DNA of 5,731 nt from a virus (taxonomy: Duplodnaviria > Heunggongvirae > Uroviricota > Caudoviricetes), in IMG/VR virus record IMGVR_UViG_2695420514_000005, one strand, 5' to 3'. The notes below the pieces were generated by a model that saw only the letters and a list, made by a program, of their open reading frames with translations, was not told where the DNA came from and did no database searches. Every line of letters starts with the position of its first letter. Position 1 is the first letter of the stretch. A program made the translations under genes and the position numbers. Shown here in pieces: positions 399 to 1,197 of the stretch.

Positions 399-482
399 TT
401 ATCCCCAGCGGCAAATCGAATACACCACCAGCGCCACCGCCATTGCAATTCCCATCGTTGCGAATGCTTCAGGCCAGGTCAT
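399..482 (-). CDS. 27-aa hydrophobic micro-ORF (MTWPEAFATMGIAMAVALVVYSICRWG), possible small membrane peptide
   Basis: ATG at 480-482 (minus) overlaps the TGA stop of the upstream DUF551 gene (479-481) in an ATGA arrangement. A strong SD (GGAGGTGA) sits 6-7 nt upstream, inside the end of the DUF551 gene. Stop TAA at 399-401. The core FATMGIAMAVALVVYSIC is long enough for one membrane helix. No homology is recognised; the ORF is short, so this call is tentative. Confidence 0.35.
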   Translation of the reverse strand: MTWPEAFATMGIAMAVALVVYSICRWG

Positions 483-1135
483 TGACTCACCTCCAGCGGC
501 GGTTCTGGTAGCGGCATCCAGTGAGTTACTTGCCCAAGGTCATTACCCGGACTAACTGCTATACCTCCGCGTCGGAACGTGTCTCCGATATAGCGTGCGG
601 AATATATTAATGGCCCAGCCTCGCTGTCGATATTCACCGAAATAAGCACGTTCTGGCTCTTTTCAGGCATTCGCTCACTGCAGCTTATCCAACTATCCGG
701 AGCTCCCGGAGAGTTGCCCGACAGCTCGTTCAACTTGTAAGTCTGGCTTACAGGCTCGTCACCATTAAGCATGGCGTTGCTCCGCTCTATACCATCCAGC
801 GCGATTCGCAGTGCCTGAATTGTGGTAGTGCTATCGTTTGGGGCTATTCCATATCGCTCGAATACAGCGATATGACCGCGCATAATCTCAGGTGTAAGTT
901 CTTTGTAAGCATAAGCAAGAGACGCTGATGCATTATCCGGCACAACCGACGCAGGCGCGGCAGCATAAACAGGAATAACGTCCGCTTGCTCTTTATTGCT
1001 TTCATCCGTTAAAGCCCAGAATAATTTCCCGGCTGGATGTTTGAAAATATAAGCAATTGGTTCTGCTTCCAGCGATGCCAGAGCAATTTTGAATAACTCA
1101 CCCTCTACTCGTGCCCCCCTGAATTGGGGTGGCAT
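479..1135 (-). CDS. DUF551-family prophage protein (218-aa open frame; probably the downstream part of a longer gene interrupted at a G6 tract)
   Basis: The C-terminal region ...WISCSERMPEKSQNVLISVN...IYSARYIGDTFRRGGI...VTHWMPLPEPP matches the conserved DUF551 signature (W-x-LP...THWMPLPEPP) common in enterobacterial prophages. The annotated ATG at 1133-1135 has no recognisable SD. An in-phase N-terminal ORF lies one frame away upstream (1105-1197). Confidence 0.7.
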   Translation of the reverse strand: MPPQFRGARVEGELFKIALASLEAEPIAYIFKHPAGKLFWALTDESNKEQADVIPVYAAAPASVVPDNASASLAYAYKELTPEIMRGHIAVFERYGIAPNDSTTTIQALRIALDGIERSNAMLNGDEPVSQTYKLNELSGNSPGAPDSWISCSERMPEKSQNVLISVNIDSEAGPLIYSARYIGDTFRRGGIAVSPGNDLGQVTHWMPLPEPPLEVSQ

Positions 1136-1197
1136 TTCGCAATCGCTATTTTAAATTTAGCTTCTTCGATTAATTGCTCTTTTGTTAATTCAGTCAT
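1105..1197 (-). pseudogene. 30-codon ORF fragment (MTELTKEQLIEEAKFKIAIAKCHPNSGGHE*), likely the original N-terminus of the DUF551 gene, separated by a -1 frame offset at a G6 homopolymer
   Basis: ATG at 1195-1197 (minus). The frame ends at TAG (1105-1107) immediately after the GGGGGG run (C6 on the plus strand, 1114-1119). Re-pairing one nucleotide back on the G run, or a seventh G, joins this frame to the 479-1135 frame, giving ...KCHPNSGG-ARVEGELFKIALASLEAEP... Confidence 0.4.

Follow-up and report, generated by a model that had tools for sequence, protein, structure and literature searches.

In the stretch analysed here, IMG/VR virus record IMGVR_UViG_2695420514_000005 (5,731 nucleotides, nt; the whole stretch is henceforth the window), a gene for a DUF551 protein is split in two by a single-base offset at a run of six G residues. 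Read as its reverse complement, the entire 5,731-bp contig BBVF01000061.1 of the Escherichia albertii draft assembly GCA_001514575.1 equals the window, which covers the early region of a lambdoid, Qin/Rac-like prophage. We are fairly confident that the split is an inherited one-base frameshift in an accessory early-region gene of this E. albertii prophage, generated when replication slipped at a poly-G tract of recent origin. The event is ordinary in kind: the homopolymer frameshift is real, and the hot spot at which it took place is new.

The two fragments are collinear on the minus strand. A 30-codon open reading frame (ORF) extends from ATG 1195-1197 to TAG 1105-1107, and a 218-codon ORF in the -1 frame extends from ATG 1133-1135 to position 479. 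From 1197 down to 1105 the 0 frame reads ATG ACT GAA ... AAT TCA GGG GGG CAC GAG TAG, and the -1 frame, followed down to 479, reads ATG CCA CCC CAA TTC AGG GGG GCA CGA GTA GAG .... The GGGGGG at 1114-1119 is the sole run between the two, with the fragments exactly one G apart. The 218-amino-acid (aa) product matches the Pfam family DUF551 (PF04448) with 75.7 bits (cut-off 22; E 5e-21) over profile positions 1-67 of 68. G6 runs occur twice in the window, compared with 1.76 expected from shuffled sequences, and a G6 alone is therefore unremarkable; it is homology, rather than the frequency of G6, that takes the split gene beyond chance.

Indeed, when one G is added, the window gene becomes a 239-aa ORF, the same as the protein of an E. 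coli relative (CP180607) except for one residue, L15F. CP180607 is the sole match of this kind among 5,426 complete E. coli genomes, with 99.8% identity over an 861-nt region in which it departs from the window by one substitution and one extra G (G7), and nothing else. There, one ORF of 239 aa spans the gene, and its annotation is DUF551 protein (WP_059271481). The run of the G7 gene is located at codons 27-28 of 239; G7 is in frame, and G6, G8 and G9 are out of frame. An earlier, sequence-only reading of the window had proposed one DUF551 gene split at the G run and had predicted that orthologues would include intact single ORFs of about 250 aa. Both hold, the former with exact coordinates and a reading frame restored by one base, the latter through the existing 239-aa orthologues.

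The family at large is congruent with this view. More distant E. coli relatives read TCA GGG ATG GCA (S-G-M-A) at the site, with the N-terminal peptide fused in frame to the body, and a 201-nt query over the N-terminal region found matches in 755 E. coli records. The 30-codon upstream ORF shares 23 of 27 residues with the N-terminus of an intact 281-aa DUF551 protein (P0098; E 6e-15). The sequence-only reading had also named findings that would overturn the single-gene proposal, orthologues beginning at 1135 or an unconserved upstream peptide; the peptide is instead conserved and joined in frame to the body in relatives. Each of the 30 members of a family alignment is a single ORF, composed of an N-terminal cassette of about 30-40 residues that is variable yet always present, a strongly conserved core that begins (E)LxxIALASLEAEP right after the tract, a variable insert and, last, the DUF551 domain. 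Intact single-ORF orthologues exist, and the window copy differs from them by a frame-breaking indel, as expected of a frameshifted gene. Searches with other collections gave no family for the intact protein in NCBIfam, only families labelled 'unknown function' in PHROGs, no credible relative by sequence in the PDB (best E 0.35) and no Ead/Ea22 Pfam match for the 218-aa ORF. Annotation of the G6 allele is inconsistent among assemblies, (loci L056-L062 versus L007-L016), many of which list a 218-aa 'DUF551 domain-containing protein', with no gene listed at three loci of identical sequence (L057, L059 and L060).

The lesion is real and inherited, not an assembly error. The substitution behind L15F defines a haplotype, H2, that is found in six assemblies, the window's included, all of them G6. 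The other five (GCA_026283325, GCA_017566885, GCA_025753965, GCA_032538465 and GCA_032536285) stem from different submissions, and in those H2 assemblies with contigs long enough, an insertion sequence (IS) transposase also adjoins the gene. The exact 218-aa product was moreover recovered from 37 contigs, in 61 blocks of a protein collection (NCBI, ENA and Logan assemblies), most of them named E. albertii.

Comparison among relatives points to slippage as the source of the missing base. Two pattern scans that did not choose loci by allele, covering JGI metagenomes and IMG/VR with 5-11 nt allowed at the tract, yielded 44 loci, of which 41 carry an interrupted tract of exactly 7 nt and three an uninterrupted one (two G7, one G6). 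Length variation was seen only in the sub-lineage with an uninterrupted run, interrupted tracts being constant at 7 nt; a tract-pattern scan of species-representative genomes gave no matches. The initial picture of the G run is refined accordingly: the run is not old in the gene, as most relatives have the interrupted and stable GGGATGG. Within haplotype H0, G6 is found in 5 loci, G7 in 6 and G8 in 4, within H3 G7 in 4 and G9 in 1, and H4 is stably G6 in four assemblies. The G6, G7 and G8 alleles show no substitution across approximately 3.1 kb of flank, and one G6 locus (L014) is identical to a G7 locus (L019) over approximately 11.8 kb.

The same behavior is apparent in a tight cluster of 11 prophages with only 26 substitution columns in 12.5 kb. 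Here G8 occurs in three sub-lineages set by different single-nucleotide polymorphisms (SNPs), with G7 sisters in two of them, and at least four independent length changes are needed, in addition to a G7-to-G9 change in H3. On the same tree, length change outpaces substitution per site by about three orders of magnitude. Fitch parsimony on a neighbor-joining tree required 8 state changes over 46 tips, versus 18-28 with shuffled labels. As a control, 22 homopolymers of at least 6 nt in the same 12.5 kb were compared, and the DUF551 G run alone varies in length. The only other G6 of the window, at 4902-4907 in the cro-like gene on the minus strand, is constant in all ten related prophages that cover the site and served as a control for homopolymer error. 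Length at the DUF551 run has thus changed repeatedly and reversibly among close strains, with recombination and biased sampling as caveats.

How the run came about may be reconstructed from a single codon, which would have passed from ATG via GTG to GGG by stepwise substitution. One route to G6 would be a T-to-G change in GGGGTGG followed by loss of one G; alternatively, the T of GGGGTGG may have been lost to give G6 directly, in which case G7 would have restored the frame secondarily. On the neighbor-joining tree (46 loci), the clade with uninterrupted tracts has G6 alleles at its base, a placement that favours the T-loss route, though recombination makes the inference unsafe. A T preceded by a G tract is a substitution hot spot in itself (review, PMC10710837). 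Slippage at the poly-G of this lineage would then have produced the G6 that is now fixed in the window lineage, cutting the Shine-Dalgarno sequence, the start codon and the predicted helix 1 off from the conserved body. The full-length protein would essentially be lost, leaving at most a small amount of the 218-aa product from the internal ATG that lacks a Shine-Dalgarno sequence, for example by re-initiation past the TAG 28 nt downstream. The operon that holds the DUF551 gene lies downstream of the cro-like gene and would, by analogy with lambda, be repressed in the lysogen. Weak selection on the gene in the host, with length variants left to drift, would hence be the simplest account. Of an earlier suggestion, a recent inactivating indel in a cryptic prophage, the recent indel in a prophage is retained, whereas 'cryptic' falls outside what is supported.

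Several considerations weigh against this account of an inherited, neutral slippage event. The loci were fetched through allele-specific protein look-ups, the allele counts are not frequencies, and tract lengths were read from assemblies and not from raw reads. Lambdoid prophages recombine, with haplotypes H5, H9 and H10 having a recombinant appearance, and recombination can mimic repeated mutation. G9 is represented by one assembly only, and that the gene is inactivated is something that we infer. Furthermore, among the contigs recorded with a tract free of interruption, about half are out of frame, a share that fits neutrality and equally a tolerated ON/OFF switch. Finally, a second variable poly-G is present in the leader of the gene, a coincidence not foreseen by a purely neutral account.

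This second tract belongs to another lineage of the same gene, in which the coding GGGATGG is stable, and is located in the 5' leader approximately 95 nt upstream of the start codon (loci L048, L051, L055, L069, L070, L071, L074, L080, L083, L086, L088 and L093). The site corresponds to about 1241-1256 of the window, where the sequence is GGAGGGATTCCTGC. Five loci have G7, six have G8 and one has G9. G7 and G8 both occur where the flanks are almost the same (L080 compared with L069 and L074), and three of these loci come from metagenome contigs of very low coverage.

Could the variation be adaptive? We deem it unlikely that the tract is a phase-variable (contingency) switch, where reversible slippage would switch the DUF551 protein in its full length, on with G7 and off with G6, G8 and G9, in a population, with a purpose such as modulating prophage induction or the lysis-lysogeny balance. 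The location of the tract in the 5' coding region, where each step shifts the frame, would suit such a role, as would the common out-of-frame alleles and the requirement for both contractions and expansions on near-identical backgrounds. The variable poly-G (G7-G9) in the leader of the other lineage helps slightly, and a DUF551 domain is present in a variant of Ea22, a protein that favours lysogeny (PMC10834534). However, most family members are without the tract and have stable interrupted versions (41 of the 44 loci), at odds with maintenance across the family, and G6 is stable in the six assemblies of the window lineage and the four of H4. The gene is also probably silent in the lysogen, and no phenotype is known. 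Lengths of G6-G9 are at the short end of known phase-variable tracts, and Escherichia is, to our knowledge, not known for simple-sequence phase-variable switches. We are just as doubtful that the 5' end of the gene family is a true contingency locus, with the coding poly-G (G6-G9, E. albertii/E. coli lineage) and the leader poly-G (G7-G9) together switching or tuning a DUF551 early protein that would act on prophage induction or on the balance of lysis and lysogeny. Of the slipped-strand phase-variable switch put forward on first sight of the sequence, slippage as a mutational process is hence substantiated by G6-G9 on near-identical backgrounds, and the adaptive switch has no support.

It is very improbable that the full-length protein is made from G6 by programmed recoding, that is, by -1 ribosomal frameshifting or by transcriptional slippage at the G run. 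The local sequence would permit it, as a tRNA-Gly in the P site, on the second GGG, could slip back by one base with perfect re-pairing and give the exact G7 product, with the 0-frame stop just two codons past the run. Non-programmed -1 suppression of 1-bp deletions furthermore can reach 1-10% in aggregate for some E. coli genes (PMC10861913); in the window gene, the productive overlap for such suppression amounts to only 14 codons. Against recoding, the two-frame arrangement is not conserved, with all 30 homologues being single ORFs and the run missing from most relatives. The 0 frame, TC-A GGG GGG CAC, presents the heptamer A_GGG_GGG, which is not of the form X_XXY_YYZ. No stimulatory element was detected on either side: the 96 nt from the run onward are no more stable than shuffled sequences (z 0.23; 116 of 200 shuffles as stable), and neither GGAG nor AGGA is found 6-17 nt before the run. 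All-G heptamers are the poorest shifters, with G_GG.G_GG.U shifting at 0.018% in E. coli without a stimulator, the lowest among the heptamers tested (PMC4066793), and transcriptional insertions in homopolymers were all in A or T runs, with G/C runs not prone (PMC5574713). The sequence-only reading had placed programmed frameshifting last among its candidates, congruent with the missing slippery heptamer and stimulator and the unconserved layout.

We then turn to the consequences of the frameshift for protein and translation. An AlphaFold model has a mean predicted local distance difference test score (pLDDT) of 53 and is usable for no more than the helical hairpin at the N-terminus and the DUF551 domain. 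The hairpin is composed of a helix at residues 6-21, a turn at 22-26 just ahead of the tract and a helix at 27-44 (pLDDT 73-87). G6 takes away the predicted helix 1 and, of greater weight, the ribosome-binding site. The 218-aa piece retains all conserved parts of the family, losing only the variable N-terminal helix in addition to that site. The true start, with its AGGAGG and hairpin, had been assigned to the upstream piece from the sequence alone, and both elements are present where proposed (AGGAGG at 1223-1228, GC hairpin at 1207-1222). The Shine-Dalgarno AGGAGG is 25 nt from ATG 1197, 16 of which are occupied by the stable hairpin, with 6 GC base pairs and a GAAA loop; folding of the hairpin would reduce the effective spacing to approximately 9 nt. 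It is present in both the minimum free energy and the centroid structures (76-nt leader, z -2.2), and the element of Shine-Dalgarno and hairpin is conserved in E. coli relatives. Covariation in this leader was not found, the variants being one G-U-compatible change and two uncompensated mismatches, with no compensatory changes. As a conserved RNA element, the hairpin has no support beyond sequence conservation.

Translation of the downstream fragment would have to begin elsewhere. The internal ATG 1135 has no Shine-Dalgarno sequence and abuts a predicted CCCC/GGGG hairpin, and the 218-aa product is conceivable through re-initiation after the TAG, a process familiar in bacteria. The G run was also considered as an internal Shine-Dalgarno sequence and rejected, as the DUF551 body is in another frame than the only start codon nearby downstream, a GTG. 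It is highly implausible that the genuine gene is the 218-codon ORF from ATG 1135 and that the 30 codons upstream form an ORF by chance. Annotation pipelines do list a 218-aa 'DUF551 domain-containing protein', and the ORF keeps each conserved block of the family. However, all 30 aligned members begin at an M-x-x-[LIF]-T motif, approximately 20-45 residues upstream of ATG 1135. The upstream peptide shows conservation, and this ATG, besides its unfavourable surroundings, is merely a by-product of the codons AAA-TGC, with no gene recorded at the site in several assemblies of the same haplotype.

A sequencing or assembly error in a genome that is truly G7 was among the first candidates and is rejected for the window with near certainty: homopolymers are classic sites of indel errors, the window is a short draft contig, and between the sibling assemblies PTTF01 and PTTE01 there are one SNP and a difference in tract length (G7 versus G8), possibly through an error in one of them, but the private-SNP haplotype is G6 throughout its six assemblies from separate submissions, the exact product recurs in the 61 collection blocks, 21 other homopolymers (including a G6 and six A/T 7-mers) are length-constant in the same assemblies, and tract length partly tracks SNP-defined lineages.

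The features of the gene, the alleles of its tract and the order of the neighboring genes are compiled below. Gene order follows how the closest E. coli relative is annotated and which genes were called at E. albertii loci.

Table. Parts of the split DUF551 gene, alleles of the tract and gene order in the prophage early region (positions of the window).
Feature	Position	Strand	Description
Whole frameshifted gene	479-1197	minus	N-terminal helix cassette (variable), conserved middle, C-terminal DUF551; 239 aa if G7
Upstream fragment	1105-1197	minus	30 codons and TAG; real start codon; encodes predicted helix 1 of the N-terminal cassette
G6 homopolymer, frameshift site	1114-1119	minus (C6 on plus)	Alleles G6, G7, G8 and G9 in public assemblies
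Downstream fragment	479-1135	minus	218-codon ORF from internal ATG, no Shine-Dalgarno; keeps conserved core (ELFKIALASLEAEP...) and DUF551
DUF551 (PF04448) domain	497-694	minus	Residues 148-213 of the 218-aa ORF; predicted beta-rich, pLDDT about 56-82
Translation-initiation region of intact gene	1207-1228	minus	AGGAGG 1223-1228, hairpin CCGCCC-GAAA-GGGCGG 1207-1222, 9 nt, ATG 1197
Private A-to-T substitution	1153	minus	TTA to TTT, L15F; lineage marker of the window; adds an extra TAA in the -1 frame
Tract GGGATGG			Met, in frame
Tract GGGTTGG			Leu, in frame
Tract GGGGTGG			Val, in frame
Tract G7			Gly, in frame
Tract G6, G8, G9			Out of frame
cI-like repressor	1st in order on the coding (minus) strand		Divergently transcribed
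Cro-like gene	2nd, after cI-like repressor	minus	
YdaT-family gene	3rd, after Cro-like gene	minus	
O-like gene	4th, after YdaT-family gene	minus	
DnaC-like ATPase (ydaV)	5th, after O-like gene	minus	
DUF1627 gene	6th, after ydaV	minus	
DUF977 gene	7th, after DUF1627 gene	minus	
DUF551 gene	8th, between DUF977 gene and hok/sok	minus	
hok/sok locus	Last in order, after DUF551 gene		

The surroundings of the gene offer further observations. The contig ends in an IS481-family element (1-197), whose transposase, as read from relatives, scores 221.6 bits against NF033577, slightly under the cut-off of 224 bits. Its insertion separates the hokD Shine-Dalgarno sequence (AAGGAGA, ending at 198) from the hokD start codon, and the hok/sok module next to the DUF551 gene is thus also disrupted; the sok antitoxin RNA is found at 192-357 on the minus strand (Rfam, 99.8 bits). 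Immediately after the DUF551 gene, and starting within its stop codon (ATGA overlap), is a 27-codon hydrophobic ORF, MTWPEAFATMGIAMAVALVVYSICRWG (399-482, minus). It is intact in about 50 related loci, with an in-frame 12-nt deletion in two loci, and shows only synonymous differences among close relatives; it matches no family and is unannotated in CP180607, the RefSeq relative examined. The DUF1627 gene contains a 72-nt in-frame segment (2034-2105, minus) that is missing from otherwise near-identical prophages, its product being 253 aa with the segment versus 229 aa without. The segment is bordered by the direct repeat AAGCTGCA and resembles a deletion or duplication between short repeats. 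The E. albertii chromosome CP099877.1 (L027 and L042) carries two related prophages with a DUF551 gene, one with the stable GGGGTGG and the other with the G6 frameshift allele, and the two copies leave room for recombination between them. A promoter and terminator scan around the DUF551 gene revealed nothing beyond the expectation from shuffles.

For annotation, these findings imply that what many E. albertii genomes list as a '218-aa DUF551 protein' is only the tail end of a 239-aa gene with a frameshift. The locus also illustrates, cleanly and on a small scale, how a mutational hot spot comes into being: by one or two point mutations (ATG to GTG to GGG), a stable codon context would have become a G run, and the new run changed length several times as the surrounding 12.5 kb hardly changed. 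If fast switching and a phenotype were true of it, the locus would be unusual for Escherichia, as a simple-sequence phase-variable locus and one inside a prophage.

The arrangement can finally be set against known systems. Programmed -1 sites, such as those of lambda G/GT, IS911 and IS3 (PMC4066793, PMC5009743), similarly show, in a phage gene, two frames that overlap and are joined at a stretch of one and the same base, but the window is without an in-frame X_XXY_YYZ, a stimulatory structure, a Shine-Dalgarno-like sequence or a conserved frame arrangement. Mosaic DUF551 proteins, namely the Ea22 variant V2 of Stx phages and YfdS of CPS-53 (PMC10834534, PMC4776307), share the C-terminal DUF551 domain with exchangeable N-terminal modules, and are likewise products of early-region accessory genes of unknown function. 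The window gene differs in its location downstream of the replication genes, and not in the exo-xis (ea) region, and in its N-terminal cassette, which is predicted to be a short helical hairpin. With simple-sequence contingency loci in Campylobacter jejuni, Neisseria and Haemophilus (poly-G/C; PMC10710837), it has in common a homopolymer in the 5' coding region at which slippage moves the frame, as well as several tract lengths among close isolates with changes both ways. The DUF551 tract is however short (6-9 nt), missing in most relatives and stable within whole sub-lineages, and it is located in a prophage early gene, whereas theirs are in surface or restriction-modification genes. Homopolymer-frameshifted prophage pseudogenes resemble the window gene in the 1-base indel in a run, the intact orthologues elsewhere, the patchy annotation and the IS insertion nearby in the same prophage; they are unlike it in that the downstream DUF551 ORF is without further lesions and in that the very same tract has changed repeatedly, possibly including changes that restore the frame.

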